From the NCBI GenBank assembly GCA_043778225.1, contig JAYWGM010000048.1, forward strand, positions 25,238 to 89,237: a stretch of DNA of 64,000 nucleotides. Reading direction: 5' to 3'. Below are positions 1 through 64,000 of the stretch, in pieces; positions within the stretch are counted from its first letter, which is position 1, and the number at the start of each line of letters is the position of its first letter. A program made the position numbers and the translations under genes. The stretch is from Deinococcales bacterium. Its GTDB lineage: Bacteria; Deinococcota; Deinococci; Deinococcales; JAAFIG01. The notes beneath the pieces are model-generated. The model was not told the origin of the DNA. It did not search any database and worked only from the letters and a program-made list of their open reading frames with translations.

Positions 1-479
1 GCGAACAGGGCAGCGAACTTGCCTTATCCGAGACGTTAAGCAGCAGTTTTGCTGGACAGACCCAAACAATTAGCCGCACTTACTTACTCGAGCGACCGGG
101 GCAAGTGCCTTTACAATTTGAAGGTGGCAAAGACTCGGACAGCACTGTATTGACCTGCAACGCCGTGGCTTTTGGTCCTGGAGCGCGGGTTTCTTTTGCT
201 CGAGCTTCCGAAATTCAGGTGATTGAGTTTCTTGGTCCAAGCGTTAAGCGTTTTGTTTTAGCCAACGACCAAGCCTTCTCGAGTTTTGCGCTTGAAGCTA
301 AATTTAAGTTGGGCTTAAAGCTCGAGGATTACCGCCCACAAGCTGCACCAAGTCTCGAGGAAGCTGGAAAACGTGGACGGCTCGAGTTATCCCGAATCAA
401 ATCCGACCCTATTTTCCCAAGTCGGTTGGTGTTTACCACCACCAATGGCGGTGCGACTTGGACATTTCAAAAACGCTAA
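1..479 (+). CDS. Hypothetical protein, 5'-truncated by the window edge
   Basis: The frame of ORF 105..479 is open back to position 3; no family recognised. Confidence 0.6.
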   Translation, partial: EQGSELALSETLSSSFAGQTQTISRTYLLERPGQVPLQFEGGKDSDSTVLTCNAVAFGPGARVSFARASEIQVIEFLGPSVKRFVLANDQAFSSFALEAKFKLGLKLEDYRPQAAPSLEEAGKRGRLELSRIKSDPIFPSRLVFTTTNGGATWTFQKR

Positions 480-564
480 GCAGTTCGCGTCAGACACCTT
501 AGCCAGATTTGTTACGGTACTGTAACGCCTTTGGCTGTAAAATGACTTGGTAAAGGAGTAAACC

Positions 565-2319
565 ATGAAAAAAAGTTGGGGAGCATTACTTTTGGTTGGA
601 GCGTTACTAAGTTTTCTCGAGGCAAAGGCGCAAAATGCCTATCCGCCAAGTGGATTTATAAAAGTTGGCAGCCAAGTTTCGCTCGAGTTGCGCCAGACGT
701 GGAGCAGCACAGTTTCGGGCAAGGATGCCGATGGTGATTGGACTGGTGATGTTCGTGGCACAAATGGCACAGTGGGTAAATTATTTGCTTTTTCGCAGAA
801 CAACAATGGCTTTGCTTTTCAGGTGGCGTATGCTGGCGCAAGCGAGTTTTGTATTTTGGCTGGTGCAAATGCGGTTGCAAGCTCGAGTGGCTCAAGTACC
901 ACTTATGTTGGAACACGTTTTTATAAACAAGGTACGGGTAGCACCAGCAACGATAACGCGCAATGCCGTGTGACCGTTAGCAATGGTGGTGGCACAGTCA
1001 CGCAACCCGTGCAACCCACACAGCCTATCCAGCCCCCAACGCTACCCAGCCCACAGGCGCAAATTCCAGCCCTGACTTTTCCGCCACGTCTCGAGGTCGG
1101 GCAACGTTGGGAATTTAGGCTCGGCAACCGCCCGGTGATTTATCGCGGTGCTTTAACTGCCCTAGATTCAGCCCGAAATGTCTACACGGGGTCGCTGCTG
1201 ACCGAAAATGCCCCAAATAGTGGTTTTGCTGGAGATACCATCAGAGAGCGTAAACTCGAGATGTTCTTTGCCCAAGATACCTTGGCGGCTTATGCCACCG
1301 ACCCACAAGGCGGCGTGACCGTTTGTAGTTTTGCTGGGGCTGGGACTTTGCAAAATAACGTTTTAACTGGAGCAGTTTTTTACCGTGCGCCGGGTGCAAG
1401 CCAATTTAGCACCTTGACGGCTATCACCGATGCACCTTGTAAAATCAATCTCGAGCCAGTTGCCCAAGCCAATCAGCCCGTCTCCCCTATTCAGCCAATA
1501 CAACCTACTCCGACTTTATCTGCCACCGTGCCAGCCCAAGTTGGCGATACATGGCGGGTTGCTGCTACTGGCTATGAACCTTGGATTCTCAGTTTCACAA
1601 GTTTAGACAAAGGTGATGCCGCCGGAACTGCCACACAAGGCACGGCTCGAGGTGAGACCTTGGGTATAAAACTTAGCAATGGCGGCTACAGTTTTCTGAT
1701 TGGAATTACAAACCGAATTTTTGCTTGTACACTTGCTCCTAACGCAACCGCCCAAGGCGCAACCCTAAATGGTTCGTTGTTTGAAATTGTGACCGTCGGC
1801 AATCAAAACCAAACTAAGGACTTAAATGCTTCTTGTGGTGCAACCCTCACGGCTCGAGGGGCAACAGTTGTGACCCAACCAGTTCAAACATTAAGTGCTA
1901 ATTTCCCACCAAGAGTGGGTCAGACTTGGACAATCACCATAGATGGGTTTGCCCCGTGGGTAATTTTGTTTAAGGATATAGACAAAGACGGCGACCCAAG
2001 CGGCACTGGTTTACAAAATGGAATCGCCCGACAAGGCGTGGCTTTTCTTAACCAAGGTTCAAAAGTATTCTTGATGGCTGGCGATAATAACTTGCTGTAC
2101 TACTGTATTTTTGCCGCCAATGTACAAGCAAATGGAGCTACCTTTTCGGGTGGTGTGGCATCACAAGCTGCCCAAGGCGCACAAAGCCTTACACCACTCA
2201 ATAAGTCTTGTACGGCAACCTTGACGGCACAACAACTCTTAAAGGCTGCCTCGGCTTCAATCGAAACTCGAGCTTCTTATACATTTCCAAACATTCTGCG
2301 ACTGTTGCCGTTATTTTAA
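565..2319 (+). CDS. Secreted protein with four tandem ~110-125 aa beta-rich repeats joined by Q/P linkers
   Basis: SD AAGGAG; signal peptide MKKSWGALLLVGALLSFLEAKA; repeats start (F)PPxxxVGQ/DxW and each has two Cys. Confidence 0.8.
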   Translation: MKKSWGALLLVGALLSFLEAKAQNAYPPSGFIKVGSQVSLELRQTWSSTVSGKDADGDWTGDVRGTNGTVGKLFAFSQNNNGFAFQVAYAGASEFCILAGANAVASSSGSSTTYVGTRFYKQGTGSTSNDNAQCRVTVSNGGGTVTQPVQPTQPIQPPTLPSPQAQIPALTFPPRLEVGQRWEFRLGNRPVIYRGALTALDSARNVYTGSLLTENAPNSGFAGDTIRERKLEMFFAQDTLAAYATDPQGGVTVCSFAGAGTLQNNVLTGAVFYRAPGASQFSTLTAITDAPCKINLEPVAQANQPVSPIQPIQPTPTLSATVPAQVGDTWRVAATGYEPWILSFTSLDKGDAAGTATQGTARGETLGIKLSNGGYSFLIGITNRIFACTLAPNATAQGATLNGSLFEIVTVGNQNQTKDLNASCGATLTARGATVVTQPVQTLSANFPPRVGQTWTITIDGFAPWVILFKDIDKDGDPSGTGLQNGIARQGVAFLNQGSKVFLMAGDNNLLYYCIFAANVQANGATFSGGVASQAAQGAQSLTPLNKSCTATLTAQQLLKAASASIETRASYTFPNILRLLPLF

Positions 2320-2320
2320 T

Positions 2321-2350
2321 TTGCGAGTTTGCCGCCTTTTGCGGTACAAT
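2321..2350 (+). promoter_or_regulatory. Putative sigma70 promoter of efp
   Basis: TTGCGA-18 nt-TACAAT upstream of efp. Confidence 0.45.
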
Positions 2351-2436
2351 ATGCCGTTTTGAATTCTCGAGCGCCCAAAGACTGGGCGCTCGTTTGCCAC
2401 CCAAGCGTCTAAAAAGCGTTTGCAACAAGGAGATTT

Positions 2437-3000
2437 ATGATTAGCGTAACCGAATTAAGAAGCAACACCAAAGTCGAAATGGAAAATGGTTTATGGGAAA
2501 CCATAGACTATATGCACCAAAAAATTGGTCGCGGCGGCGCAAAAGTCGTGGCAAAGTTTCGTAACTTAGAAACTGGCAGCATTGTAGACCGCACTTTTAG
2601 CGCCACCGAAAAATTGCAAGATATTTTTATCGAAGGGCGCACAATGCAGTTTTTATATAAAGACAGCGAAGACTTTGTTTTTATGGACATGGAAACCTTT
2701 GACCAACAAACCCTTCCGATGATTCTGGCTGGCGATTCGGCACGGTTCTTAAAAGAAAATACCGAAGTTGAAGTCCAGTTTTTCCGTGAAAAGCCATTAA
2801 AAATTAGCTTACCCAACATGGTGGTCTTAAAAATCATCGAAGCTGCCCCAGGCTTAAAAGGCGATACCGCTTCGGGTGGTGGCACAAAAGCCGCCAAACT
2901 CGAGACTGGCACAACCATTCAAGTGCCACTTTTTATTGAACAAGAAGAGTCGGTCAAAGTGGATACCCGCACTGGCGAATACCTTGGACGCTCGAATTAA
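2437..3000 (+). CDS. efp: Translation elongation factor P
   Basis: KIGRGGA loop, KAAKLETG..VPLFI..KVDTRTGEY motifs; SD AAGGAG. Confidence 0.97.
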   Translation: MISVTELRSNTKVEMENGLWETIDYMHQKIGRGGAKVVAKFRNLETGSIVDRTFSATEKLQDIFIEGRTMQFLYKDSEDFVFMDMETFDQQTLPMILAGDSARFLKENTEVEVQFFREKPLKISLPNMVVLKIIEAAPGLKGDTASGGGTKAAKLETGTTIQVPLFIEQEESVKVDTRTGEYLGRSN

Positions 3001-3004
3001 AAGC

Positions 3005-3088
3005 AAGGTAAAAAGGAGAAAGGGTCAAAAGGTTAAATATCTTAGCGAACACTCCATTTAACTTTTTCCCTTTTGACCTTTTTACCTA
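3005..3088. repeat. Inverted pair of degenerate octamer (GGTYAAAA) arrays between convergent efp and ppc; likely bidirectional terminator
   Basis: aaggtaaaaaggagaaagggtcaaaaggttaaat ... atttaactttttcccttttgacctttttacct. Confidence 0.7.
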
Positions 3089-3094
3089 AGTTCT

Positions 3095-5656
3095 TTACCC
3101 CGTGTTGCGTAATCCTGCCGCAATGCCTTGGATGCTCAACAGCAAGGCTCGCTCGAGGGTGGCGCGTTCGGCATTCTCGGTGGGTGTAGAGCGATAACGG
3201 CGCAACAATTCGACTTGGACAATATGAATCGGGTCGACATAAGGGTTGCGGACTTCGATACTGCGCCGCAAGCGTGGTTCGGACTCGAGTAAATCTCCAC
3301 CGATGGCGGCTTTGACGTGCTGCACGGCTCGAGCGTATTCCTCGAGAACCGCGTCCCGCAGTTGCGGTTGCTCGGAAAGTGCAGCATAGCGCTTAAAAAT
3401 ACTCATGTCGGACTTGGCAAGGCTCATCTGGGCGTTATCGAGCAAACTGCGAAAAAATGCCCAATCGCGGTAGAGTTTGGCGCTTAAACCCGCTTGTTGT
3501 TGCTCGAGTGCCGCTAAACCAGCCCCAAGCCCATACCACCCGGGAACAGTCGCACGGTTTTGTGTCCAACTCATGACCCACGGGATGGCTCGCAAATTAT
3601 CCAAAGTCGGTTTACCGGGGCGACGCACTGGGCGGCTGGCAATCCGTAGGCTGGCAATTTCGTTGATTGGCGTAACCGCTTCAAAAAACTCGAGGAAGTT
3701 TGAGTCAAAAACCAAGGCTTGATAGGCTTGGCTCGAGGCAGCCGCCGCCAGATTCAAGGCTTCGCGCCATTGCAGTGGCACAATCTGAGGTTCTTGAGCA
3801 GCAGCTACAATCATCGCGTACAGCAGTTGCTCGAGGTTACGTTTTGCCAATTCTGGACTGGCATAACGGTCGGCAAGGGCTTCGCCTTGTTCGGTCAGGC
3901 GCAAACCCGCACCAATTGTGCCGGGTGGTTGCGCCATGATGCCTCGAGCCGCCGGACCGCCACCACGCCCAATACTTGTACCGCGCCCATGAAAGAAACG
4001 ATACGGCACAGCCAGCGCCGCAAAAAGTTCAGCTAATTTTTCTTGGGCTTGGTAAAGCGCCCAGTTGGCAGCCAAGAAACCCGCTTCTTTGTTGCTGTCC
4101 GAGTAGCCAAGCATCACTTCTTGGACTCGAGAACCCAAGTGAGCGCGGTAAATCGGGCTTTGCAAAAGCGCTTGCATCACACTTGGGCAGTTCTCGAGGT
4201 CGTGTGGTGTTTCAAAAAGCGGTGAGACATCCAGCGCCAAAAAACCAGCCTCGCGCCCAAGAATCAGCGCTTCAAGGACATCCGAAGCACTTTCGCCATG
4301 CGAAATCACATAGCGCCCAAAAGCATGGGGGTTGGTCTCGAGGTGCGCCCGCATGACCCGCAATGGCTCGAGGACGGCTGTAAGCTCCTCTGAACTAGCC
4401 ATACCTATCGGCAACAATGGTCGTCGGGTCTCGAGTTCGCTTTCAAGCAATGCCATACGTTCTGGCTCGGACAGAGCTGCATAGCTTTGGCTAACTCCGC
4501 CTAAGGCAAGTAGCTCGGCGACTGCACTTTCGATTTTACCCGAGAATTCACGAATATCGAGCGCCACCAAATGCGTCCCGAACATTTTTGCCCGCACTAA
4601 GACTGGCTCGACAAAAACCCGAGCCGCCCGTTCTTGTCCAGCTGCCACCAAAGAATCGCGCACTTGCTCGAGGATTGGGACAGCCTCGACTGATTCGGTG
4701 CGTAAGCGCAAATGCAGCGCTTCGAGTTCGGCTCGCCATGGCTCTGGGGCAGTCGAATCTAAATGAACATGAACCCGTTCGCGGTGCTGCGAAAGCACCG
4801 TAAAAAGCTGATTGATTTCTAAGCGCAAGGTTTCTCGAGCTTGGGTCTGGTGATAGCGCAGGGTTTCGGCAGTCACTTCTGGGGTCACAAACGGGTTTCC
4901 ATCGCGGTCGCCGCCAATCCACGAATAAAACTTGAGCGGCAGATTGACCTCGGGCGTACCCGCCCCAAATTCTTGCTGCATGGCGTTTTGTAAATCAACC
5001 TGTAAACTGGGCAGGGCTGCCGAAATTGAAGTTAAATAATGCAGACCATTGACCACTTCGTCGTGAACTGTTGGGTTGCGAGCTTGAAGCTCGAGTGTTC
5101 CCCACAGCACTTCAATTCGAGCCGTGACCCGCTCGATCGCTTCGGAGCGCTCAGACTCAGACTCGAGTAAGTTCAGTTCTTCGGAAATATGCTCGAGGTG
5201 CGCCCGAACAGTGCGGCGGCGCAATTCGGTCGGATGCGCCGTAAAAGTGCTACCCAACTCGACTTGGCGCAGTAAATCGGCAACTTTTTGCGCCGAAAAC
5301 CCCTGTTTTTTAAGCTGAAAAATCGCATCATGCAGGCTTTGTTTGCGTGGCTCGAGAACCGAGGCTCGGGTGTCACGCCAACGCACCCGATGGCGCTCTT
5401 CGGCAAGATTGACCAAATGAAAATACTGGGTAAAAGCCCGAATCAGGGCTTCGGCATCGGCAATGCCCAACTTAGCAGCAATCGTCTCGAGTTGCTGCGG
5501 TGCGCTCTGGTCGCCGCCTCGAGCGCGTTTGGTCAGTTCGCGCACTTCTTCTTCGAGGTCAAAAAATTCTTGACCTTCTTGCTCGATGAGAACCGCACCA
5601 AGGCAGCGCCCAAGTAAATCCACATCTTTAGACAGCGCATCTCGAGTAAAATTCAT
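3095..5656 (-). CDS. ppc: Phosphoenolpyruvate carboxylase
   Basis: FTAHPTE, SWIGGDRDGNP, QEVMLGYSDSNKE, FHGRGTSIGRGG, LRAIPW and C-terminal GLRNTG motifs. Confidence 0.97.
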   Translation of the reverse strand: MNFTRDALSKDVDLLGRCLGAVLIEQEGQEFFDLEEEVRELTKRARGGDQSAPQQLETIAAKLGIADAEALIRAFTQYFHLVNLAEERHRVRWRDTRASVLEPRKQSLHDAIFQLKKQGFSAQKVADLLRQVELGSTFTAHPTELRRRTVRAHLEHISEELNLLESESERSEAIERVTARIEVLWGTLELQARNPTVHDEVVNGLHYLTSISAALPSLQVDLQNAMQQEFGAGTPEVNLPLKFYSWIGGDRDGNPFVTPEVTAETLRYHQTQARETLRLEINQLFTVLSQHRERVHVHLDSTAPEPWRAELEALHLRLRTESVEAVPILEQVRDSLVAAGQERAARVFVEPVLVRAKMFGTHLVALDIREFSGKIESAVAELLALGGVSQSYAALSEPERMALLESELETRRPLLPIGMASSEELTAVLEPLRVMRAHLETNPHAFGRYVISHGESASDVLEALILGREAGFLALDVSPLFETPHDLENCPSVMQALLQSPIYRAHLGSRVQEVMLGYSDSNKEAGFLAANWALYQAQEKLAELFAALAVPYRFFHGRGTSIGRGGGPAARGIMAQPPGTIGAGLRLTEQGEALADRYASPELAKRNLEQLLYAMIVAAAQEPQIVPLQWREALNLAAAASSQAYQALVFDSNFLEFFEAVTPINEIASLRIASRPVRRPGKPTLDNLRAIPWVMSWTQNRATVPGWYGLGAGLAALEQQQAGLSAKLYRDWAFFRSLLDNAQMSLAKSDMSIFKRYAALSEQPQLRDAVLEEYARAVQHVKAAIGGDLLESEPRLRRSIEVRNPYVDPIHIVQVELLRRYRSTPTENAERATLERALLLSIQGIAAGLRNTG

Positions 5657-6444
5657 AGGCGCACCTCACCTTCATACGTTCCTAGTTCGTTGGTCTCGAG
5701 GAACGTATAGCGCACACCTCGAGTCACTTTGCCAGCAATCAAATCAAAGGCAAGCGCCGACATCTGAACCGCGCCCTGGGCAACTTCGGCTTTCATCGGT
5801 AAACCAGTGCGGAGTTTATAGATACTGGCTTCTAAACCCATACCGATGCTCGAGTTCAAAACACCCGTCATACCAACATCGCTCTGAAACAGTGTGCCAT
5901 TGGGCAAAATACGGGTGTCAGCCGTCGCTACATGGGTATGCGTGCCGATACAAGCAGCAATCTGACCATCAAAATAGGAGGCAAAACAGATTTTTTCCGA
6001 AGTGGCTTCGGCATGAAAATCCACAAAGATTGGCGAATCCACATTCTCGAGGACTGACTCGAGGGCATCATAAGGGTTATCGTTGGGCTGCATAAAAACC
6101 CGCCCCAAGAGATTGACAACCGTAATTTTTTCGTCTCCGACCACAAATGTACCGTAGCCACGTCCGGGGGCTTCTTTGACCGCATTGAGCGGACGAATCA
6201 AACGCGGGTCGTTGGTCAGTTGCAGCACTTCTTTGTTGTCCCACGCATGGTTGCCAAGCGTGATGCAATGCACCCCAGCTTTACAGAGTGCATCGAATGA
6301 ATCTTTATTGATTCCATGTCCACCAGCCGCATTTTCACCGTTGGCAATAATAAAATCAAAATTGGATTTAATTCGCGGCAAATGGCTCGAGATTAAATTT
6401 CGCCCGGGTTTACCAAAGACATCGCCAATAAAAAGCACTCGCAC
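5653..6444 (-). CDS. ymdB: YmdB/TIGR00282-family metallophosphoesterase
   Basis: LFIGDVFG, NGENAAGG, TLGNHAW, DFHAEATSEK, GTHTHV, DVGMTG motifs. Confidence 0.92.
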   Translation of the reverse strand: MRVLFIGDVFGKPGRNLISSHLPRIKSNFDFIIANGENAAGGHGINKDSFDALCKAGVHCITLGNHAWDNKEVLQLTNDPRLIRPLNAVKEAPGRGYGTFVVGDEKITVVNLLGRVFMQPNDNPYDALESVLENVDSPIFVDFHAEATSEKICFASYFDGQIAACIGTHTHVATADTRILPNGTLFQSDVGMTGVLNSSIGMGLEASIYKLRTGLPMKAEVAQGAVQMSALAFDLIAGKVTRGVRYTFLETNELGTYEGEVRL

Positions 6445-6532
6445 GTGGTTAGGCTAACAGGAATTGGCGCGAAAATGTGCGAACAAGCGTTCAGTTGCTC
6501 GGTTTACAAGATTTATCAAGTATACTCAAAGC

Positions 6533-7429
6533 GTGAAACGACTGGCAGTATTGTTGGCAATCCTTAGCTCGAGCTTTTTGATGGTTCAAGCCACAACCCT
6601 TTCAGTGGTCATGACCGACTTTACTGGCGAACGAATTGAAATTTCCAGCACTGCCAGAATCGTGACGCTTGGCAGCAGTCTGACCGAAATAGTCTATGCC
6701 TTAAATGCCCAGCAGCGCTTAGTGGCGGTCGATGCCACCAGCAATTTTCCACTCGAGACCAAAAACTTAATGCAGTTGCCATCTGCTCGAAGCGCCACGC
6801 TCGAGGGCGTACTCAATGCCAAACCGAGCTTGGTCTTAACGCTCGATACCGCCCTGCCCGAAACGATACAAGGTTTACGAAAATTTAACATTCCAACCGT
6901 GGTCATCAGCGCCAAAGAGAACCTTGAAAACAGCCAAAATAAAATTCGTTTTGTGGCTCAAGCCCTGTCACTCGAGACTCGAGGACTGGAACTAATTCGC
7001 AATTATCAAAAAGACCTTGCCTTGGCAAAAAGCCTCTACTCGAGCATCCGAAACCGCCCTAAAGTGATGTTTTTATATAGTGGCTCTGGCGGCAAAATCA
7101 CGGTTTCTGGGCGCGATACCGCCGCCGATGCGGTGATTAAATTGGCGGGTGGCACAAATCCGTTCCAGAGCTACACGGGTTATGCACCACTCTCGCAGGA
7201 AGCCACAATTCTTGCCAATCCAGACATCATTTTGATGACCAGCCTTGGGTACAGTGGGGCTGGAGAAACCCAAGGTTTACTGCGCCTACCGGGGCTTGCC
7301 AACACCAAAGCTGGACGAAATAAAAACTTTTTGCACTTTGAAGGCAATTATTTACTTGGCTTTGGTCCACGCATTGGGCAAGCGGTGCTAGAACTGATGT
7401 ATGCGATTCACCCAGAACTTAAAAAATAG
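6533..7429 (+). CDS. Periplasmic substrate-binding protein, heme/siderophore/B12 class (HmuT-like)
   Basis: Signal peptide; RIVTLGSSLTEIVYAL, LVAVDATS, NPDIIL, LLGFGPR motifs; GTG 6 nt after TATACT. Confidence 0.85.
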   Translation: MKRLAVLLAILSSSFLMVQATTLSVVMTDFTGERIEISSTARIVTLGSSLTEIVYALNAQQRLVAVDATSNFPLETKNLMQLPSARSATLEGVLNAKPSLVLTLDTALPETIQGLRKFNIPTVVISAKENLENSQNKIRFVAQALSLETRGLELIRNYQKDLALAKSLYSSIRNRPKVMFLYSGSGGKITVSGRDTAADAVIKLAGGTNPFQSYTGYAPLSQEATILANPDIILMTSLGYSGAGETQGLLRLPGLANTKAGRNKNFLHFEGNYLLGFGPRIGQAVLELMYAIHPELKK

Positions 7430-7510: not shown

Positions 7511-7544
7511 AAACTATTTTTTTAACCCTCGAGTGCGTTACGAT

Positions 7545-56200: not shown

Positions 56201-57646
56201 CTCGAGCAACTGATTGGCTACCCTTATGGCTGTACCGAACAAACCCTATCGCGCTTTTTGCCGACTCTGCTGGCACAGCAAGCCTTTCCCCGCGACGACC
56301 TGCCCGAACTCTTGGATGCGGGTTTAAGCCGCCTCGAGACGCTGCGCCACAACGATGGCGGCTGGGGCTTTTGGACTGAAGACAGCAGCACGCTGGAGAT
56401 GACCGGACAAGTGGTGCTGGCATTGGCTCGAGCCAAAACAGTCGGGCTAAAATTTGAGTCGTATTTGTTGGATGGCGCAGTGCAGTGGTTGCGCCAACGC
56501 ATCAACGATGGCAATGGTCAACGTGGCGCACGAGCCGTGGCATACCGCGCTCTTGCCGAAGCAGGCAGCCCAGCTTTGGAGAGCATGGAAGACTTTGCCG
56601 CCCTGCGCGACCTCGAGCCGTATCATCTGGGGCAACTGGCACTGGCATACCACAAACTTGGCAAGCTCGAGGAAGCCCGCACAATGCTGACCCGCCTCAA
56701 AGCCAAGCGCATCGAGACCGACAGCAATGTGCGCTGGGAACGTCCAAATCGTCAGTACCGTTGGTACTACTACTGGGATGATAACCCCGTCTTGGTCACG
56801 GCAGTTGCACTCGAAGCCTTAGCCAAACTCGAGCCACGCAGCAATCTGATTCCAAAAACAATCAATTATTTACTGCAACAACGCCGTGGTTACTGGTGGG
56901 TCTCGACCCAAGACACCGCCGCCACCGTGATTGCCGCGCTTGCACTACCCAAACCTGCCGACAGCAACCAGACCGTTAAAGTGCTGCTGAACGGCAAAGA
57001 AATCGCCACCAAGACCATAGACGAAAAAGGCACAACCCTCGACCTTGACCCAAAGCTCAAAATTGGCGAAAACAGCCTCGAGATTAAAGGCGACCTCAAT
57101 TATGCCGCCAGCCTCGAGTACGTCCGTGAGCCAGAACGCTTGGTGGCTGATTCGGATGGAATTACGGTTAATCCAACCTATTACAAACTCGAGAAAAAAT
57201 GGAACGAAAGCGCTCGTAATTACGATTACACCCCAGTGCCACTGATTAAGGATGGTATTGCCCAACCACTCGAGGTTGGCGAAATGATTGCGGTCAACAT
57301 CCGCATTAAACCCGAAAGTGGCAGTATGCGCCATCTGCAAGTGATTCAGCCCGTACCAGCCGGCTTTAGTGTGGTTAAAGAAACTGGTTGGAATTTCCAG
57401 CCCGGCAGAGCCATTCGCTACTTTGAAAATTATTGGTACTGGAATTATTGGTACTCTGGGCGTGAAATTTACCAAGATCGCGTAGAACTCTATGCCGACA
57501 CCTTTGGCGGCGAGCAAGAATTTACAGTCTATATGCGGGCGCAAACCCCCGGCACATTTACCGCACTGCCAACCATTGCCGAACTGATGTACGACCCCAG
57601 CATTCGCGGTCGCTCGAGTGCCGCAACTTTAACAATTAAAGAATAA
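53210..57646 (+). CDS. Bacterial alpha-2-macroglobulin (YfaS/YfhM-like)
   Basis: Signal peptide; TDRPLYKP, VRKDF, PENLTTWR, thioester PYGCTEQ, DGGWGFW, STQDT, AELMYDP. Confidence 0.93.
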   Translation: MKPFLRLWGVLLVLLGLSAAFVWAQRDSQLWVYSRGIFLPTDDLRFELYSYGADPSEITVNYNKVTDPLALLRLKPNDGYSAIKIPENIKTTLVKRSNVKMDRNYGQVNLGKLESGLYLLGFASGNAKGIGIALVTDLGILVKRADKNVSVLSVNRVNGQRRSATVYGIEGNNAQQIRTDVNGLGKLSPSSDKNGLVVANSGNNWAVSRSWWQSYGLEKWKLTGQTDRPLYKPADAVSFRGTLREGNTLKPIKLEKISVVACYDNTELWRGKQAVNEYGTFSGSFSLSRRAKTSEYDQYRIYVAPSGEAACGAGLNVASFKVEDYIKPDFTVALENPEIGLQGTSVKIAASAEYLFGGGVSGGKVNIQVSRAERYRRDDPRYSDFGYYWGEWDYWQPRQAIILEKNTVLGESGKLEVTVPLERDPDNAVVAYNIQTTIEDETRRPQTTSSTVIAYPSTVRVAVRSSRYVVKAGEEIEMDVRTRDLTGEAADAPVELTLVRRDYWYNASRWTPREEKLETRTVSTKNGNAKVKFKVAQGGGYSVLAKAKDPQNRVSLGEAFVWVTEDNPSWYWYYENAGMQIKMDKREYAVGDTAVAFISGIKQGVDVWLTLEGSEILNQRVTRAAGGNAAWTFKVTKEMQPNIVLKAAYIAAGAKSLTETTLAVPKVQERLSISILPAKQKYQAGEAGQVKLRVRDANGKPIKTELGVTVVDKGIYLLKEDSTPNPFDVLHGYRNNLVGTVSSEDETLYVDAPRPVATALASPSVAARPRAEAPSANKAVADSAASGAEVKVRKDFRDTADWRASLITNDEGEVTMTVPFPENLTTWRITVRGQTLEAKAGAAKTEVMVTQDIVARIAQPTFLVRGDSFQLRGIVNNNRETPITGQFSIGLNGLTASTPLQTSLSIKPGQRGSFDTRVTATEFGIAKVTAKFADNLGGDALELPINIKPRGFTDGTGWAADAKRGAKKFSIPTDTNLESARLKIALTPSLLSAVRPALEQLIGYPYGCTEQTLSRFLPTLLAQQAFPRDDLPELLDAGLSRLETLRHNDGGWGFWTEDSSTLEMTGQVVLALARAKTVGLKFESYLLDGAVQWLRQRINDGNGQRGARAVAYRALAEAGSPALESMEDFAALRDLEPYHLGQLALAYHKLGKLEEARTMLTRLKAKRIETDSNVRWERPNRQYRWYYYWDDNPVLVTAVALEALAKLEPRSNLIPKTINYLLQQRRGYWWVSTQDTAATVIAALALPKPADSNQTVKVLLNGKEIATKTIDEKGTTLDLDPKLKIGENSLEIKGDLNYAASLEYVREPERLVADSDGITVNPTYYKLEKKWNESARNYDYTPVPLIKDGIAQPLEVGEMIAVNIRIKPESGSMRHLQVIQPVPAGFSVVKETGWNFQPGRAIRYFENYWYWNYWYSGREIYQDRVELYADTFGGEQEFTVYMRAQTPGTFTALPTIAELMYDPSIRGRSSAATLTIKE

Positions 57647-57647
57647 A

Positions 57648-57935
57648 CCCTCACCCGCCGCGCCTCTTGACCCCTACAGCAGCACCTTCGGGCTTGGGGG
57701 CGCGACACCCTGTTGGACTGTTTATTGCTCTTTTCCTGCATTTCCACGAGCTTCGCTCGATACTATTGTGTCGCCAAAAAGCGCGGGAGAGGGTTGTTCG
57801 GTTTGTTTTGTTGTTCTAGCGTAAGGATGGAAAAAGCCAAACCCTACCAACCAAAAACCCCCTCAACGAGCGACCCAGCCCGTCAGGTGCATCTTTAGGG
57901 TCAAGAGAGGGGGTCGCCGAAGGCGGGGGGAGTGC
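57648..57935. repeat. GC-rich REP-like palindromic cluster containing two micro-element copies (57665-57703 minus, 57870-57906 plus)
   Basis: ccctcacccgcc.. / ccccctc-aacga-[insert]-gagggggtcgccgaaggcgggggg; inserts match GCCCG..GGTGC..GGTCAAGA. Confidence 0.72.
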
Positions 57936-57993
57936 GTGAGAGAATGTGTCTTCATGTACCGCATCGCACTCCTTGACCTGCCGAACTTGACTT

Positions 57994-58926
57994 CTATAAA
58001 TGGGTCTTAAACCACTCGAGGGTCATACGCCAAGCATCGTCAGCAGCATCTTTTTTATAGTTTGCGCCAGTATCGTTGTTAAAGGCATGATTTGCGCCTT
58101 CATAGATTTTAATTTGGTACTTGGCATTGGCAGCTTTGAGGGCGGTCTCGAGGGCGGGAATTCCAGCATTGATACGGCTGTCGTTACCGCCGTAAATACC
58201 CAGCACCGCCGCTTTGATGTTGGGGACTTTTGTTAAGTCTGGAGCAGGTCCGTAAAATGGCACGGCTGCCAAGAGGTCTTTACTTTCGGTCGCAAGTCGC
58301 CACGTTAAGCCGCCGCCAAAGCAAAAGCCAGTCACGCCAAGGCGCTGAGATTGCACACCAATATAATTTTTAAGCACATGCAGTGCCTCGAGCAAATTCG
58401 TCACGTGTTCGTCGCCGTTGGTCTGAGCCAATAAACTCGAGATTTGGGCTGTATCGGTAAATTTCTTTGTGCCGCCGCTTTTACTGACCAAATCCACGGC
58501 TAGTGCCACATAACCAGCTTTGGCTAAGCGCCGTGCGATGTCTTCGATGTGTGGTTGCAGCCCACGGTTTTCGTGAATCACCAGCACACCCGGCGCACTG
58601 GCAGTGCCAACGGGTTTAGCCAAGTAGCCAAAATGTTCAAACCCCCTTGCCATAAAAGAAATGCTTTTGGCATCGATGCTTGGGTCTTTGGGGTCAACTT
58701 GTTGCGCTCGTAACACGGGTTCGACTTCGGGGATGCTGGCAAAAACTTGGTCCCATTCAGCTTGGCTGGCTGCGGCTATTCCAGCCGAACTTAAAAGCGC
58801 GGTCGCGCCAACGATACCGCCACCCAGCAGTGCCATACGGCGCAGCAGTTCACGGCGACTGATTTCTCCGTGTTGAAAGTCTTCAACAAATTCGTCTACC
58901 ACATACCGATACAAATCTTGCTGCAT
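57994..58926 (-). CDS. Dienelactone hydrolase family protein (YghX-like, twin-arginine-like N-terminus)
   Basis: SRRELL, IHENRGL, GFCFGG, ANHAFNND; SD GAGGAG. Confidence 0.92.
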   Translation of the reverse strand: MQQDLYRYVVDEFVEDFQHGEISRRELLRRMALLGGGIVGATALLSSAGIAAASQAEWDQVFASIPEVEPVLRAQQVDPKDPSIDAKSISFMARGFEHFGYLAKPVGTASAPGVLVIHENRGLQPHIEDIARRLAKAGYVALAVDLVSKSGGTKKFTDTAQISSLLAQTNGDEHVTNLLEALHVLKNYIGVQSQRLGVTGFCFGGGLTWRLATESKDLLAAVPFYGPAPDLTKVPNIKAAVLGIYGGNDSRINAGIPALETALKAANAKYQIKIYEGANHAFNNDTGANYKKDAADDAWRMTLEWFKTHL

Positions 58927-58936
58927 AAAAACTCCT

Positions 58937-59893
58937 CTAGACCACACGACGGTTGAGTTCTCCCGCCGCCAACGAAACAAAAAGTAGAATTCCTGCCAAC
59001 GCGGCTGCCAAATGGGTCACTTCACCAGGGCGGGTTGTCCAACCAATGCTGCGTCCAAGGTTTTTATAAACGGCATTGAGTTGCCCCGCACTGCGAGCTT
59101 CAAAGTATTGTCCGCCAGTCGTGGCGGCGATTTGCTTTAAGGTTTCGGGGTCAAAACCCACCCGAAAACCGCCATTCTCGAGGTTGATTGAACCAGTTTC
59201 TGTGCCAAGCCCAACGGTATAAATTTTAACTTGTTGGTCTCGAGCCATGCTTGCCATTTCGATCGGGTCTGGGTCACGGTTGTTGCGCCCATCGGTCAGC
59301 AACACCACAGCCACAGGTGGTGGATTTTTCTCGAGCTTGGTCTGACCATCACTGTTGCGTCCGGGCAGCGCCGAAACCGATTCACGGATACCCGCCCCGA
59401 TGGCTGTACCACGTCCCATCGATAACTCATCAATCGCTTTTAAGACTTCATCATGATCGGCGGTCGGATTGACATTCACAGCCGCATAACCAGCAAAACT
59501 GACCAGACCAATTTTTGTGCCTTTTGGCAGTTGTTTGATAAAAAGTCGAGCCGCTTCTTGGGCGGCGATAAACCGAGTCGGCACAATGTCTTTGGCATCC
59601 ATCGAAAGCGAAACATCGAGCGTTATCATGATCGTGGTTTTATTGTCTGGTACTGGCACAGGCGCATTGGGGCGAGCCAGTGCCACAACCGACATTCCGA
59701 TTGCCAGTAAAAACACCAGGGTCGGTAAATCGCGTCCTCTCGAGAAACGCTTGGTGCTGAGTCGCTCGAGAAATTCAGCATCGGGGTGCAGCACCACACC
59801 CTCGGCGGGACGTGCCTGACTTTTAAGGTACAACCATGCCAAAATTGGAATCACCAAGAGTGCCAGCAATAACCATGTCCAAGTAAAACTCAT
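58937..59893 (-). CDS. vWA-domain membrane protein (BatA-like)
   Basis: ALARP, MIDAS DVSLSM, GTAIG, LLTDG. Confidence 0.9.
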   Translation of the reverse strand: MSFTWTWLLLALLVIPILAWLYLKSQARPAEGVVLHPDAEFLERLSTKRFSRGRDLPTLVFLLAIGMSVVALARPNAPVPVPDNKTTIMITLDVSLSMDAKDIVPTRFIAAQEAARLFIKQLPKGTKIGLVSFAGYAAVNVNPTADHDEVLKAIDELSMGRGTAIGAGIRESVSALPGRNSDGQTKLEKNPPPVAVVLLTDGRNNRDPDPIEMASMARDQQVKIYTVGLGTETGSINLENGGFRVGFDPETLKQIAATTGGQYFEARSAGQLNAVYKNLGRSIGWTTRPGEVTHLAAALAGILLFVSLAAGELNRRVV

Positions 59894-60903
59894 GTCAACC
59901 TCCGATGCCAAACCAGATTAAATCCAGCCGCAAACAGCAACCAGAGCAGAGCCAAACCCGACAAAACACCGCTTAACTCGAGTTTGGTGGCTTCAAAACG
60001 AATTGCTGTGCCGAGTTCCTTAAAAATTTTGGTCAGTTCGCCTTTGTCAGCCGTCACAGCTTGCCCTTCGCCAAGTTGGGCAATTTGTTTTAGGGTTTCG
60101 GCATTAAAGGGAATAAAGTAATCTTGCCCATCTATTTTGGCAACTGCGCCACCTTGTTTACCGACCGCTACTGTGTAGACCTTGACTTTGTGGGTTTTGG
60201 CAAATTGGGTGGCTAAACGCACATCTGCCCCAGCGTTGCCAACCCCGTCGGAGAGCAGCAAAATTGCGCCGGGCGGCAAAGCGTTAAAATCTATCGGCTT
60301 GGCAGTGGGGTTTTGTTGCCCCGGGCGCGGCGCTCCGGGCAATCCTTGCGGGATAATCGCTGCCGCTCGTCCGGGTAAGGCGCGAACACCCGCCACAATT
60401 GGGTCGGCAAGGCTGGTGGTATTGGAGGTTTTGACTTTCTCGAGCCGCTCGAGCAATTGCACGCGGTCGGTCGTGACCGGCACAACGGCAGCAGCACTCT
60501 CGGAAAATGTCACCAAGCCAATGCGCGTATCTTGCGGCGCAAGTTTAAGAAAATCCTTAATCACACCTTTGGCAACCTCGAGCCGCGTTGGTTCAACATC
60601 TGGCGCAAGCATCGAACGGCTGGTGTCGAGGGCAATCATCACAGCAGCTTTATTTTGTGGCAAAGAAAGGGTGGCGGTTGGGTGTGAAGCGGTCAATAAA
60701 AGCGCTGCCAATGCCAACAATTGCAAAACCCGTGGGATATTGGAGTGTGCTTTTGGGGCGGTTTTAATCGTGCTGCTCAGTAAACTGGCATCAGCATAGA
60801 GCAGCGAGGTATTTTTACGCCGTGCCTCAAGCCGTGTGAGACCAAACCAAGCAAGCGGCACAAGCAGCAACAGCAACAACAATTCGGGGGAAGCAAAAGT
60901 CAT
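59890..60903 (-). CDS. vWA-domain membrane protein (BatA-like paralogue)
   Basis: MTFASP, MIDAS DTSRSM, LLSDG. Confidence 0.9.
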   Translation of the reverse strand: MTFASPELLLLLLLVPLAWFGLTRLEARRKNTSLLYADASLLSSTIKTAPKAHSNIPRVLQLLALAALLLTASHPTATLSLPQNKAAVMIALDTSRSMLAPDVEPTRLEVAKGVIKDFLKLAPQDTRIGLVTFSESAAAVVPVTTDRVQLLERLEKVKTSNTTSLADPIVAGVRALPGRAAAIIPQGLPGAPRPGQQNPTAKPIDFNALPPGAILLLSDGVGNAGADVRLATQFAKTHKVKVYTVAVGKQGGAVAKIDGQDYFIPFNAETLKQIAQLGEGQAVTADKGELTKIFKELGTAIRFEATKLELSGVLSGLALLWLLFAAGFNLVWHRRLT

Positions 60904-61883
60904 CTGCGTCCTTTTCTGCGAATGGCAAACTTGAGCAATGGATTTAAGATGTCATGGGCGGTAATCAACTCTAAATTGTCCACTGTTGCCCTCCTAAATG
61001 CTTTAGAAATGCGGTTTTCACGCTCGAGAACCATAGCCTGATGAGCCGCTTGAACACTTTTATCGGAAGTATCCACCCAAGTTTCACGGCTCGAAACGGG
61101 GTCACGAAAACGCGCCCCGCCAACTTTGGGCAACTCGCGCTCTACGGGGTCTATGGTTCGCACCGCGATTAAATCGTGTTTGATGCCCAAGCGCGAAAGG
61201 TTTTTTTCCCACAAGGCGGGCGGCTCGAGAAAATCAGAAATCACAAAGACCAAACCACGCCGCCGCAGGGTCTTGGCGACTTGCTCGAGGGCAGTGCCTA
61301 AATTGGTCTGCGAAGCTATATTTTGATTCTCGAGTTTTGAAAGTTGGTCTACGATTCTCAAGGCTTGTTGCCGACCGCTGCCGGCTGGAATCAGTTTGAC
61401 CCCGTTAGCACTGACCGCCAATGCCCCAACTTTATCGCCGTGCCGAGTACAGATTCGGGCTGCCATGGCGGCAAACTCGAGCGCCAACTGGAATTTGGTG
61501 ACGCGCCGTGTGCCAAAGTGCATACTTGGGTTGGCATCGACAATAATCCAAGCCGTAATCTCGCGCTCTTCACGGTACTGGCGCACGTGCAACTCACCAG
61601 AACGGGCGGTCACATTCCAGTCAATCCGCCGTACTTCGTCGCCCGGCTGATATGGGCGCACTTCGGCTAAATCCAAACTTGGTCCATAAAAAACGCCAGT
61701 GTAATCGCCAAATAAAAAGCCATCCAAACGCTTTAAGACCGTAAACTCGAGTTGGCGCAGCAATTGCTCGGGGAGGGCATGATGGGCGGCTTTACTCGAG
61801 ACCACGGGTGCAACCGACAAAGCCGGCGGCGCTTTTGGGGTGCGTCGCCAAAATGGGGTACGGCTAGTGCTGGCAATGGTCAC
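60900..61883 (-). CDS. DUF58-domain protein
   Basis: VRPYQPGDEVRRIDWNVTAR, ISDF. Confidence 0.93.
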   Translation of the reverse strand: MTIASTSRTPFWRRTPKAPPALSVAPVVSSKAAHHALPEQLLRQLEFTVLKRLDGFLFGDYTGVFYGPSLDLAEVRPYQPGDEVRRIDWNVTARSGELHVRQYREEREITAWIIVDANPSMHFGTRRVTKFQLALEFAAMAARICTRHGDKVGALAVSANGVKLIPAGSGRQQALRIVDQLSKLENQNIASQTNLGTALEQVAKTLRRRGLVFVISDFLEPPALWEKNLSRLGIKHDLIAVRTIDPVERELPKVGGARFRDPVSSRETWVDTSDKSVQAAHQAMVLERENRISKAFRRATVDNLELITAHDILNPLLKFAIRRKGRR

Positions 61884-61903
61884 AAATTATTCCCTTGATA
61901 GAG

Positions 61904-61927
61904 AGGCGAGGCAAGCCCCGCCCCTAC
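61904..61927 (-). repeat. Single GTAG-type REP
   Basis: Reverse complement GTAGGGGCGGGGCTTGCCTCGCCT. Confidence 0.75.
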
Positions 61928-61929
61928 GG

Positions 61930-62991
61930 TTACAGATTGACTTCGATGTTGTTTAAGCTGCTGCTGTTTGGCACAGCATCGACAGATTTGTACGGGTCGC
62001 CGAGGTGAACTCGAGGCAGCGAAATATTTTGCAAAATCTGAGAGATGATGCCTTCCATGCTGATGCCATCTGCCAAAGCATCGTAACTTGGGATAATCCT
62101 GTGACGCAGCACATCAAATGCCAAATCGCGGACATCTTCGGGCAAGGCGTATTCGCGTCCGCGCATGATTGCCAAGGCTTTTGCACCAAGCACCAAATTG
62201 ACACTGGCTCGAGGGCTTGCACCAATCGAAATAAATTTTTTCAGTTCGGGCAGCTTGGCTTCGGATGGTTCGCGGGTGGCTCGAGCCAAACGCACCGCGT
62301 ATTCGGTCACGCTTGGGTGAACATACACTTGGTCCGCCATGCGCTGTAAATTGACCAATTCCTCGAGGGTCAGCTTAATCTCGAGTTTGTCAAATTTGGT
62401 GCTAACCCTGTCCACGACCGTCATTTCTTCATGGAAACCGGGGTAACTAATCACAACCTTAAACATAAACCTATCCACTTGGGCTTCAGGCAGAAAATAC
62501 GTGCCTTCGGATTCGATTGGGTTTTGGGTAGCAAGTACCAAAAACGGGTTGGGAAGCGGAAAAGTCTGTTGCCCGATGGTCACTTGGCGTTCCTGCATGG
62601 CTTCTAAAAGAGCGCTTTGGATTTTGGCGGGCGCACGGTTAATTTCATCGGCGAGGATTAAATTAGCCACAATCGGACCTAACTCGGTTTCAAACTTGGC
62701 TTCTTTTTGGTTGTAAATCCGTGTACCAATTAAATCGGCTGGCACAAGGTCTGGGGTAAATTGAATGCGCTTAAAACTTGCACCAATTGCGTCGGCGGTG
62801 CTTTTAATGGCGAGGGTTTTAGCCAGACCCGGTACGCCCTCAATTAAAATATGCCCTCGAGCAATTAAAGCCACCAACAAGCGCTCGAGCATCACATCCT
62901 GCCCGACAATTACGCGCTTGACTTCAAATAACAGGGTGCGAACTTTGGCGCTGGCATCCATCACTTCTTTGGGGTTGAGTGGTGTATTCAT
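61930..62991 (-). CDS. moxR: MoxR-family AAA+ ATPase
   Basis: GVPGLAKT, RIQFTPDLVPAD, ADEINRA, ATQNPIE, GASPRA. Confidence 0.95.
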   Translation of the reverse strand: MNTPLNPKEVMDASAKVRTLLFEVKRVIVGQDVMLERLLVALIARGHILIEGVPGLAKTLAIKSTADAIGASFKRIQFTPDLVPADLIGTRIYNQKEAKFETELGPIVANLILADEINRAPAKIQSALLEAMQERQVTIGQQTFPLPNPFLVLATQNPIESEGTYFLPEAQVDRFMFKVVISYPGFHEEMTVVDRVSTKFDKLEIKLTLEELVNLQRMADQVYVHPSVTEYAVRLARATREPSEAKLPELKKFISIGASPRASVNLVLGAKALAIMRGREYALPEDVRDLAFDVLRHRIIPSYDALADGISMEGIISQILQNISLPRVHLGDPYKSVDAVPNSSSLNNIEVNL

Positions 62992-63042
62992 TATTCTCCA
63001 GTCTGCGGTACAGCCATGAAGGGCGTGTGAAGGGAAAAAGAC

Positions 63043-63079
63043 AGGGTTAAAAGGGGAAAAGGTCAAAAGGGGAAAAGTT
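63043..63079 (+). repeat. Octamer array
   Basis: gggttaaaaggggaaaaggtcaaaaggggaaaag. Confidence 0.7.
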
Positions 63080-63085
63080 TTGTGG

Positions 63086-63562
63086 CTAACTTCTTGGGTT
63101 TGGTGGGGTGCTTGGACTCGAGGGGGTGCTTGGCGTGCTTGGCGTACTTGGCGTACTTGGCGTGCTTGGATTTAAGGGAATCAGTTCTTGTCCTTGACCG
63201 GGTTGTCCGGGCTGATTGCCTTGCCCTTGACCGGGCTGCTGTCCGGGTTGTTGTCCGGGGCGCGGAAAAGTAAAGAGTTGTCCATCTTGATAAATTTGCA
63301 CTGGGCAATCTGCGGGGGCTTGTCCTTGTCCGGGCTGAGGTTGTTGCCCCTGTCCTTGACCGGGCTGTTGACCATTTGGACCAAGCGGGATTAACTCTCG
63401 GGAGTCGTTGGGGGCTGGAGCTTGTGGGGTAGGGGCTTGTACCAACTGGATTTTAATTGGTACTCGAGCCTCGAGTTGCGTATTGGGTGTGCTGACCCGA
63501 CCCAGAAAAAAGCCAGCGCTTAAAAGCGCCACGGCAGCCGCGAGCAAACCAAGTGATTTCAT
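63086..63562 (-). CDS. Membrane-anchored low-complexity protein (QPGQG and PST repeats), first gene of the MoxR operon
   Basis: N-terminal hydrophobic helix; duplicated ELIPL; 9-bp tandem repeats; ATG 7 nt after TACAAT. Confidence 0.75.
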   Translation of the reverse strand: MKSLGLLAAAVALLSAGFFLGRVSTPNTQLEARVPIKIQLVQAPTPQAPAPNDSRELIPLGPNGQQPGQGQGQQPQPGQGQAPADCPVQIYQDGQLFTFPRPGQQPGQQPGQGQGNQPGQPGQGQELIPLNPSTPSTPSTPSTPSTPSSPSTPPNPRS

Positions 63563-63680
63563 GCCACCTATTGTAGCGCCTTTGGTGTGAAGGAATTGAA
63601 AAGAAAATGACAGTTTTATTCACACAAACTTCAAAAACACGATGCTCTGGTCATGATTCAAGACTCTGCAAAACACACCC

Positions 63681-63905
63681 TAGTGGGTCATTCGACACGG
63701 AGAAAAGAGGAAAGAGGAAGCGACCATGCCCGTGAGCGACCCAGCCCGTGAGCGACCATGCCCGTGAGGTGCGTCTTTAGGGTCAAGACAGGTGCGTCTT
63801 TAGGGTCAAGACAGATGCGTGTATATGGTCAAGAAAGAGGAAAAATGTGCTGTACGCTATTCTCGAGATAACTCAAAGATACTATGCAAATCGAATGACC
63901 CACTA
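63681..63905. mobile_element. MITE-like element, family B, with perfect 15-bp TIR, containing a heptamer array and a triple-nested micro-element
   Basis: TAGTGGGTCATTCGA (63681-95) / TCGAATGACCCACTA (63891-905). Confidence 0.75.
63720..63834 (+). mobile_element. Three micro-element copies nested inside one another
   Basis: Left halves 63720-35 and 63736-51, full copy 63752-88, right halves 63789-811 and 63812-34. Confidence 0.88.
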
Positions 63906-64000
63906 AGTATCTCCCGCCTGTCTTGACCATAAACACGCACCTGACGGGCATGGTCGCGCATTTTAGATTTTTCACAAAACGGCAAATCTGTTCTTGCTCG
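63904..64000. mobile_element. Second copy of MITE family A (truncated by the window) with a micro-element at 63921-63957
   Basis: Matches 50844-50901 apart from a 37-38 bp insert (reverse complement GCGACCATGCCCGTCAGGTGCGTGTTTATGGTCAAGA). Confidence 0.8.

Follow-up and report, generated by a model that had tools for sequence, protein, structure and literature searches.

CTCGAG as a highly iterated palindrome in a family of Deinococcota, with AddAB as its candidate reader

The 64,000-nucleotide stretch analysed here (the window; contig JAYWGM010000048.1 of the Deinococcales bacterium assembly GCA_043778225.1) carries 389 copies of the palindrome CTCGAG where base composition predicts 15.5, each of its 16 bins of 4 kb holding 12–31 copies. 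The source genome as a whole (G000; 4,029,277 bases in 107 contigs, the longest 154 kb, 89% complete) holds 24,877 copies, or 6,174/Mb, at 4.0–10.6 per kb on each of the 107 contigs. By its features CTCGAG is a word of the HIP class, distinct from HIP1, the highly iterated palindrome of cyanobacteria, and its identity as a Chi site is a candidate only. Among the explanations considered, a recombination signal for the helicase-nuclease AddAB, an option not raised in a preliminary description of the window, fits the comparative data best; from sequence comparisons, we give a probability of about 0.35 to the proposal that CTCGAG is a Chi-like stop signal read by the AddAB of Deinococcota.

An excess in all reading frames and between genes

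The observed-over-expected ratio (O/E) of CTCGAG in G000 is 26.7, 47.5, 15.1, and 3.6 under Markov models of order 0, 1, 2, and 3, the word itself inflating the higher orders. When synonymous codons are shuffled gene by gene in 3,592 open reading frames (ORFs; our own calls), so that the proteins and the codon use of each gene are kept, 2,397 coding copies result against 22,377 observed, a 9.3-fold excess. The excess holds in each of the three frames (13,347 observed versus 1,699 shuffled, 4,467 versus 387, and 4,563 versus 311, or 7.9-, 11.5-, and 14.7-fold), and the word occurs at 5.86/kb between genes (2,567 copies in 438 kb) and at 6.20/kb within them. The preliminary description had likened CTCGAG to HIP1 and reported it in all frames and in intergenic DNA, and both statements hold for the genome, the word being palindromic, genome-wide, frame-independent, conserved between genomes, and clade-wide; control for codon usage, under which that description expected the enrichment to vanish if its claim were wrong, leaves the 9.3-fold excess in place. 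Sixty percent of the coding copies lie in the Leu-Glu frame. The proteins contain 19,327 Leu-Glu dipeptides, 2.3 times the expected 8,372; 69% of the pairs are encoded CTC GAG, and Glu-Leu stands at 0.96 of expectation.

No extension to a longer consensus was found; CTCGAG behaves as a pure hexamer with weak flank preferences. Its spacing is approximately exponential (coefficient of variation 1.0), with no preferred distance and no clear helical phase. The clusters of the same word described at the origin in Nocardia (accessible text of PMC4752239) have no counterpart at dnaA/oriC in G000, where 1–4 sites per 500 bases surround dnaA. Words of restriction type are avoided: 40 of the 64 palindromic hexamers occur at fewer than 50/Mb, GGCC has 131 sites (O/E 0.01), CCWGG and GATC stand at 0.12 and 0.2, RTCGAY is depleted, and CGATCG has 182 copies (O/E 0.2). 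The genome carries about 20 DNA methylase genes or fragments.

CTCGAG clusters most densely in G000 at C44:70033–70190, an intergenic tandem repeat whose 24-base unit holds one copy. Low-GC islands (31–38%) lack the word for 3.4–5.6 kb (C44:57429–63066, C41:55252–59552, and C40:7693–11073), and recently acquired DNA is sensitively marked by the density of the word in this genome.

Fixation bias on the whole word

A set of 416 orthologue pairs built on a 762-kb sample of the relative G003, with a four-fold divergence of 0.47, has 1,842 of 2,897 CTCGAG sites (0.64) common to both genomes, which places the word first among 1,655 hexamers (median 0.30). Gains and losses were counted in two closer pairs that both share G003, namely G003 with G001 (75.6 kb) and G003 with G005 (72.4 kb). 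With 56 and 31 differences of two or more changes excluded, gains stand at 4.1 times background in both pairs (60/14.8 and 51/12.5, respectively) and losses at 0.14 (60/418) and 0.17 (51/304) of background. All nine single-base changes are rarer than background per motif (0.04–0.27) and commoner per one-off word (1.6–21). Under an assumption of equilibrium, a fixation bias of e^S = 27 (S of about 3.3 per site, matching the 27-fold excess) predicts gains of 3.4-fold and losses of 0.13-fold, a ratchet that acts on gains only predicts 27-fold and 1-fold, and protection alone predicts 1-fold and 0.04-fold. The comparisons thus show that a fixation bias, acting on all six letters as one word and worth an S of about 3.3 per site, maintains CTCGAG; because all nine losses are suppressed and gains are raised, the bias does not take the form of a Vsr-type ratchet. 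Polarisation of the changes by an outgroup was set aside, being biased by the CTCGAG excess of the outgroup itself and dependent on few events.

Synonymous divergence around shared sites is 0.98–1.07 of the gene mean at distances from 4 to more than 400 bases and drops to 0.86 at 3 bases or less, so that no local repair shield is visible in the flanks by this measure, which is blunted by saturation. Neighbouring sites do affect one another. The fraction of Leu-Glu pairs occupied by CTCGAG is 0.31, 0.58, 0.67, 0.71, and 0.75 with a neighbour nearer than 15, 30, 45, 60, and 75 bases, and about 0.78 with the nearest neighbour beyond 90 bases. The effect is best fitted by an exponential kernel of 15–20 bases, symmetric up- and downstream; it is weaker between genes, and it is stronger than the depletion of generic six-base inverted repeats, which reaches just 0.62–0.73 at 9–15 bases. 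The farther off the next site, the higher the retention between genomes, which climbs from 0.43 up to 0.79, at a logit of 0.25 ± 0.04 per doubling of distance with protein identity controlled and shared sites counted twice, and compensation of a lost site by one gained nearby is weak (1.0–1.2-fold). The sites are thus shown to be partly redundant, each counting for less if a further copy stands no more than a few tens of bases away. Frame-dependent deletion between neighbouring sites was considered and rejected, the difference between in-frame and out-of-frame intervals being small.

Spread among relatives and co-occurrence with AddAB

Whole-genome counts were made for 151 genomes, in which we assigned family labels from elongation factor G (EF-G), size, and gene content: f3 is taken as Deinococcus-like, g9 as Thermus-like, and g13 as Meiothermus-like. 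All 19 genomes of the family that holds G000 (f1) carry 4,291–6,784 CTCGAG/Mb, and all 36 of f3, its sister in an EF-G tree of 30 rows (support 100/99), carry 13–270/Mb; the remaining families are intermediate. In DNA samples, f3 falls below its codon-shuffled expectation (22 versus 51.6). Among 20 relatives sampled at 6–20 kb each, the codon-shuffle ratio is 3.3–7.6 in eight (G059, G147, G103, G126, G042, G113, G128, and G013), 1.1–2.1 in seven, and below 1 in five (two of g9 and three of f3), and much of the raw excess in high-GC relatives is codon-driven (ratios 1.1–1.9). CTCGAG is the top palindrome in 50 kb of the A. silvanus plasmid pMESIL01 (45 versus 21.7 shuffled). In g9 it lies below the shuffle (99 versus 155), with other TCGA words far lower (86 versus 425); TCGA is fivefold depleted outside CTCGAG in these genomes (CTCGAC 4 versus 64). 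A literature search, with most subscription journals outside its coverage, found no published CTCGAG excess in Deinococcota.

The genes for AddAB occur in nearly all lineages that carry the word. G000 encodes AddA (C79:31168–33813, 881 aa, UvrD families) and AddB (C32:43473–45914, 813 aa, ADDB_N above cut-off), the latter with a predicted Chi-scanning N-terminal domain and a match to Bacillus subtilis AddB (3u44_B) at E 0.005; four cysteines of the AddB C-terminal domain are kept in three aligned rows. An apparent absence of AddAB from G000, first suggested by PF12705, was reversed by tblastn and protein searches. Across the 151 genomes, AddA was matched in 18 of 18 genomes of f1 (17 strongly), 36 of 37 of f2, 22 of 23 of f4, and 35 of 36 of f5, and AddB in 17 of 18, 36 of 37, 21 of 23, and 35 of 36, respectively. 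In f3, AddA was matched in 9 of 36 genomes, every match being partial (E 1e-26 to 1e-40), and AddB weakly in 4 of 36; Deinococcus is described as lacking addAB, with a divergent pair in a few species (accessible parts of PMC9751324 and PMC6300522). The genome G120 (96% complete) lacks both addA and addB and has no CTCGAG excess (4 versus 3.6, from a 24-kb sample), and its weakly supported sister G129 (87/86) has both genes and 1,276 CTCGAG/Mb, about seven times the expectation from base composition. As to gene order, G000 has its addA and addB genes in separate places, addB following recN; the two neighbour each other in G006, G011, G013, and G015 and in most of the other families.

Seven residues of B. 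subtilis AddB are critical for Chi recognition (PMC3321194, in the part accessible), and they align with S39, Q40, S42, L62, N64, Y67, and Y180 of the protein studied here. In 11 of 11 f1 sequences, B. subtilis Q42 is kept and the equivalents of W73 and F210 are aromatic. A pocket score was built from the six positions shared with B. subtilis and applied to 25 genomes outside f1 and f3. The median CTCGAG excess over other TCGA words is 2.98 (1.24–12.0) in the 15 genomes with an intact pocket and 1.30 (0.86–2.84) in the 10 with a decayed one; the plain codon-shuffle medians are 2.28 and 1.58.

A host-like phage under the same pressure

Viral DNA carries the same word. The contig L488 (IMGVR_UViG_3300049825_000721; terminase phrog_2) has 55 CTCGAG in 6.1 kb, or 9.0/kb, with 37 versus 3.8 shuffled in seven ORFs, and no GGCC. 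It came from two AT-flanked scans that gave 90 loci with one host-like, by a pattern requiring three CTCGAG sites; the matches listed from an earlier viral scan were mostly high-GC phages with no host-like one among them. Its motif-masked tetranucleotide correlation with the host is 0.81; none of the other 169 viral loci exceeds 0.38. Since no CRISPR spacer matched the viral loci compared, and matches of L488 to the family genomes are short and weak and mostly to a tRNA-like gene, the host assignment rests on composition, from which L488 appears to infect this family. The comparison shows a host-like phage under the same CTCGAG pressure as the host.

G000 also carries a CRISPR array (C80:16–2662), which we take to be of type I-E, with 44 repeats of 29 bases and 43 spacers of host-like word content. 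The spacers hold 10 CTCGAG, against 7.3 at host density and 0.29 under a uniform model, and none matches elsewhere in the G000 assembly. Four further viral contigs (L337, L468, L476, and L454) have 4–8 CTCGAG per kb with a composition that is not host-like, and most are rich in GAGCTC.

AddAB and a proposed palindromic Chi-like site

We infer that a protein reads the unmodified word and that AddAB is the best candidate. In the proposed mechanism, AddAB would resect DNA from a double-strand break back to the next CTCGAG, which, being palindromic, would be active from either side. An allele with CTCGAG would persist on the recombinogenic 3′ tail, and an allele without it would be digested, then restored by copying from a further chromosome of the cell. 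Where cells are polyploid and breaks are common, the outcome would be biased gene conversion toward CTCGAG or weak selection for short resection, and either conversion among chromosome copies or selection on resection length could supply an S of about 3. Frequent breaks in G000 are proposed on account of its some twenty methylase genes and its avoidance of most other palindromes; phage DNA would gain CTCGAG because such DNA survives AddAB; and a lineage in which AddAB was lost, or the AddB pocket decayed, would lose the word. The fuller proposal, that this is the first palindromic Chi site, read by AddAB both ways and driven by biased break repair to one copy per 160 bases, is slightly more doubtful than the stop signal itself.

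Several observations weigh against a role for AddAB. In AddB itself, five of the seven Chi-equivalent positions are invariant in f1 against a background of 39%, which is not significant. The naive p of 0.0006 for the pocket comparison overstates the case, as the measure was chosen post hoc and applied to samples of 2.5–45 kb from non-independent kin, and GC content confounds it, every genome with a decayed pocket having a GC of at least 0.62. Individual genomes depart from the pattern: G031 and G019 have an intact pocket and low ratios (1.24 and 1.40), G045, whose pocket is decayed, reaches a ratio of 2.84 (5 sites), and G141 has both genes and a pocket score of 5/6 with no CTCGAG excess (11 sites in 24 kb). 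No AddB match was found in G003 (94% complete, 5,163/Mb), and G098 (99% complete) lacks both genes and still has about 1,100/Mb. Thermus-like g9 has AddAB and a codon-shuffle ratio of 0.64, and its sparing of CTCGAG could come from its TaqI-type methylase, present in 22 of 22 genomes. Because AddAB is nearly universal outside f3, few independent events stand behind the co-occurrence, about two losses of the genes and two cases of pocket decay, and the same presence profile will be found for many other genes.

The mechanism meets difficulties of its own. Polyploidy of f1 is assumed by analogy with Thermus thermophilus, which is reported to be polyploid (accessible parts of PMC9751324 and PMC6300522). 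Models in which breaks fall anywhere (sum or product of the flanking gaps) fit occupancy worse than the 15–20-bp kernel does, and AddAB gives no reason why CTCGAG is two to three times denser in f1 than in other carriers. From the accessible text of the sources, the Chi sites known so far are not palindromes and are G-rich sequences built on a GxGG core (PMC3321194; 10.1101/2024.09.10.611283), the abundance of Chi in E. coli has been argued to be codon-driven (10.1101/2021.07.08.451572), and the HIP1 effect persisted after deletion of addAB in Synechococcus 7002 (10.1101/2024.09.10.611283).

Alternative explanations

The preliminary description had proposed a methylation/repair-driven or chromosome-organising system and had suggested a search for a methyltransferase and Vsr-like nuclease co-distributed with the enrichment. 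A methylation/repair-driven system is not supported: with the queries used, no methylase shared by the 19 f1 genomes emerged, Vsr was matched in 0 of 19 (the positive control matched 3 of 14), all six positions of the word are held, and the flanks are unshielded. For chromosome organisation, the sites show no clustering at dnaA/oriC. Two proteins served as presumed stand-ins for the CTCGAG methylases of the phylum: the TaqI-type L053 (E 2e-126 to M.TaqI), which matched 24 of 151 genomes and 0 of 19 in f1, and L056, presumably a PaeR7I-type methylase, which matched 22 of 151 with a best f1 identity of 32% and near-full orthologues in three of ten g13 genomes. The C5, N6_N4, and D12 families are present in 18, 17, and 18 of the 19 f1 genomes, with N6_N4 absent from the closed genome G013 and C5 from G010; among the matches listed, no C5 or D12 cluster covers more than nine f1 genomes, the largest D12 cluster covering eight, and profiles built from these proteins found no orthologue in G000. 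With these queries no methylase common to the 19 genomes was found, within the limits of draft assemblies and first-look filters. The XhoI-family nuclease profile PF04555 had no match in G000, and its control also matched nowhere. A scan of genome contigs with the TaqI-type protein gave a single, unrelated locus, which was rejected. Two motif-rich relatives have the PaeR7I-type gene in fragments (L095/L110/L115 in G070 and L089/L109 in G030), and the TaqI-type gene of g9 is represented by L063–L085.

A conserved orphan methylase that marks CTCGAG and directs repair, by Elhai's ratchet or as a Dam-like strand signal, would raise a 6-mer to a density that is usual for 4-mers; on this view, the searches missed the enzyme or it has been replaced repeatedly. 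Such enzymes do occur in the phylum: in the accessible part of PMC4752239, N6-methyladenine in CTCGAG is given with no restriction partner listed for Marinithermus hydrothermalis, Meiothermus ruber, and M. chliarophilus, and methylation of CTCGAG and TCGA is reported as common to one hot-spring host-phage group (10.64898/2026.06.24.734251, accessible part); PMC8112702 shows 5-methylcytosine in CTCGAG only for a haloarchaeon, and the repeat treated in PMC5317091 is an unrelated one of 18 nt. A first look by family search can also miss genes, as happened with AddB. Beyond the failed searches, the flanks are unprotected, a gain-only ratchet predicts losses that are not suppressed, and the five methylome rows given for M. 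silvanus in the accessible part of PMC4752239 include none for CTCGAG, though it is the top palindrome in the 50 kb of pMESIL01; overall we hold this explanation to be improbable. Least credible of all is that the word has no dedicated reader and reflects codon or dipeptide usage, restriction sparing, or an artefact of assembly or cloning. The share of coding sites in the Leu-Glu frame and the codon-driven excess of high-GC relatives speak for it; for f1 it is refuted by the codon shuffle and by conservation between genomes (64% against 30% for the median hexamer), and the equal intergenic density, the presence of the word in 19 of 19 genomes, and the match of the window to contigs of two sequencing runs, possibly the source of this DNA, count against it as well.

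A sequence-specific DNA-binding protein, acting as a nucleoid organiser or protective coat with weak direct selection on each site, would leave an identical signature of fixation bias. A second CTCGAG inside one footprint would add little, and the 15–20-bp exclusion kernel is footprint-sized; genes and spacers are evenly covered, and a binder has been proposed for HIP1 (PMC5861425, accessible part). Against this stand the near-exponential spacing with neither preferred distance nor clear helical phase, a phage fragment denser than its host, and the failure of any candidate protein to emerge, and we regard a binder as unlikely. Slightly less likely is a self-mark, in which CTCGAG gates natural transformation, at uptake or in processing afterwards, or exempts DNA from some nuclease that attacks foreign DNA and is not AddAB, with molecular drive spreading the word. 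HIP1 is reported to raise transformation up to 100-fold and to track pilus genes (10.1101/2024.09.10.611283; PMC13756078), and palindromic RAATTY gates transformation in Campylobacter (cited in 10.1101/2024.09.10.611283), in the parts of these sources accessible to us. The near absence of 40 of 64 palindromic hexamers suggests heavy DNA traffic, and low-GC islands lack CTCGAG for up to 5.6 kb; however, an uptake bias should saturate at fragment length, where saturation is seen at 15–60 bp, the 9/kb in phage is left without account, and both known palindromic cases need a methylase, none common to f1 having been found. Deinococcus is competent, and the CTCGAG depletion of the Deinococcus-like f3 counts against a self-mark.

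Relation to known systems

The features of the HIP class are a palindrome at 300/Mb or more and far over expectation (here 6,174/Mb, with O/E of 26.7 at order 0 and 15.1 at order 2), occurrence in all frames and in non-coding DNA, and sites conserved beyond control words, and CTCGAG displays each of them. Like HIP1 (GCGATCGC; PMC4390886, PMC5861425), it is a short, genome-wide, clade-wide palindrome whose function is unexplained in the accessible text of those sources. HIP1 differs in that GCGATCGC has a CGATCG/GATC core and is cyanobacterial, whereas the CTCGAG host groups with Deinococcus-like kin by EF-G; in its density of 300–2,700/Mb (PMC4390886) or 0.2–2.73/kb (PMC5861425), against 4,300–6,800/Mb for a plain 6-mer without extension; and in being described as nearly coextensive with CGATCG methylases, where no co-distributed methylase was found for CTCGAG. 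HIP1 also recurs with a periodicity of 10–90 kb.

The likeness to Chi sites of AddAB and RecBCD lies in a short over-represented word, enriched in phage as Chi is in P1 (10.1101/2021.07.08.451572, accessible part), and in a co-occurring AddAB whose AddB keeps the pocket of motifs Ia, Ib, and II (PMC3321194, accessible part). CTCGAG differs in being palindromic, in lacking a GxGG core and any orientation (neighbour effects are symmetric), and in an excess that codon usage falls far short of explaining; that AddAB recognises the word is here a prediction. The word excess of very short patch repair by Vsr is not matched, nine changes being affected instead of one T:G mismatch. The DNA uptake words of Neisseria (DUS) and Haemophilus (USS) are non-palindromic 9–12-mers at about one per kb, and they reshape the peptides they encode. 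CTCGAG shares with them dispersal and reshaped peptides, and differs as a palindromic 6-mer at six per kb that saturates at tens of bases and is dense in phage. The RAATTY word of Campylobacter is likewise palindromic and dense (10.1101/2024.09.10.611283, accessible part), but it is methylated, and for CTCGAG no shared methylase was found. The orphan methylases M.Mru1279II, M.Mhy14884I, and M.Mch9957IV concern the same word in the same phylum, and the accessible text of PMC4752239 reports no genome-wide CTCGAG excess for their species; neither stand-in query type has an orthologue in f1.

Features of the window

The nine copies that the preliminary description counted in the first 1000 bp were recovered, and ppc and fusA, the conserved genes it named, carry the word (Table 1). 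In fusA, six of the seven positions are also CTCGAG in 7 to 10 of 11 aligned family genomes. That description saw no cognate methylase in the window, and we too recognised no DNA methylase among 49 ORFs compared with NCBIfam, out of 61 of at least 150 aa; none of the DNA-methylase family matches of the genome falls on the contig of the window (C48). The ORF that spans the longest CTCGAG-free stretch had no NCBIfam match. Short tandem repeats, also noted earlier, are present in nine rows, and three brief segments find many matches in each other's company across three sister genomes, as would be expected of dispersed mini-repeats or of an insertion element.

Table 1. Features of the 64,000-nucleotide window
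Feature	Position	Strand	Details
Dispersed CTCGAG	87..63867	.	389 copies (1 per 165 bases); genes (three frames) and intergenic DNA
CTCGAG of the first kilobase	87..887	.	nine copies; starts 87, 199, 278, 321, 354, 381, 616, 682, 882
ppc (phosphoenolpyruvate carboxylase)	3095..5656	-	23 CTCGAG, 9.0 per kb
fusA (EF-G)	31042..33144	-	7 CTCGAG
Longest CTCGAG-free stretch	16432..17696	.	1,264 bases, within an ORF of 893 aa
Short segments matched in sister genomes	10104–10220, 13080–13680, 16760–16865
Short tandem repeats	53052–53123, 25098–25135, 63045–63834		include an 8-base unit in 8.9 copies; several 9–27-base units near the right end
ORF with TilS domain	11645–13303		fused with a TadA-like deaminase domain
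ANT(6)-like aminoglycoside adenylyltransferase	30136–31008		directly after fusA; score below curated cut-offs

Implications

HIP1 has stood without a mechanism for three decades, and CTCGAG is an independent, denser case in another phylum. A motif-free sister family, relatives that are graded, culturable, and genetically tractable, and a candidate reader make the question testable at the bench. In these genomes, XhoI-type sites and the LE and SS peptides are not neutral, and a force at the level of DNA is strong enough to alter protein sequences across a whole family. If CTCGAG is a palindromic Chi site, AddAB would be the first named reader of a highly iterated palindrome, and its action would override restriction-site avoidance, more than double Leu-Glu, and force mimicry on phage.

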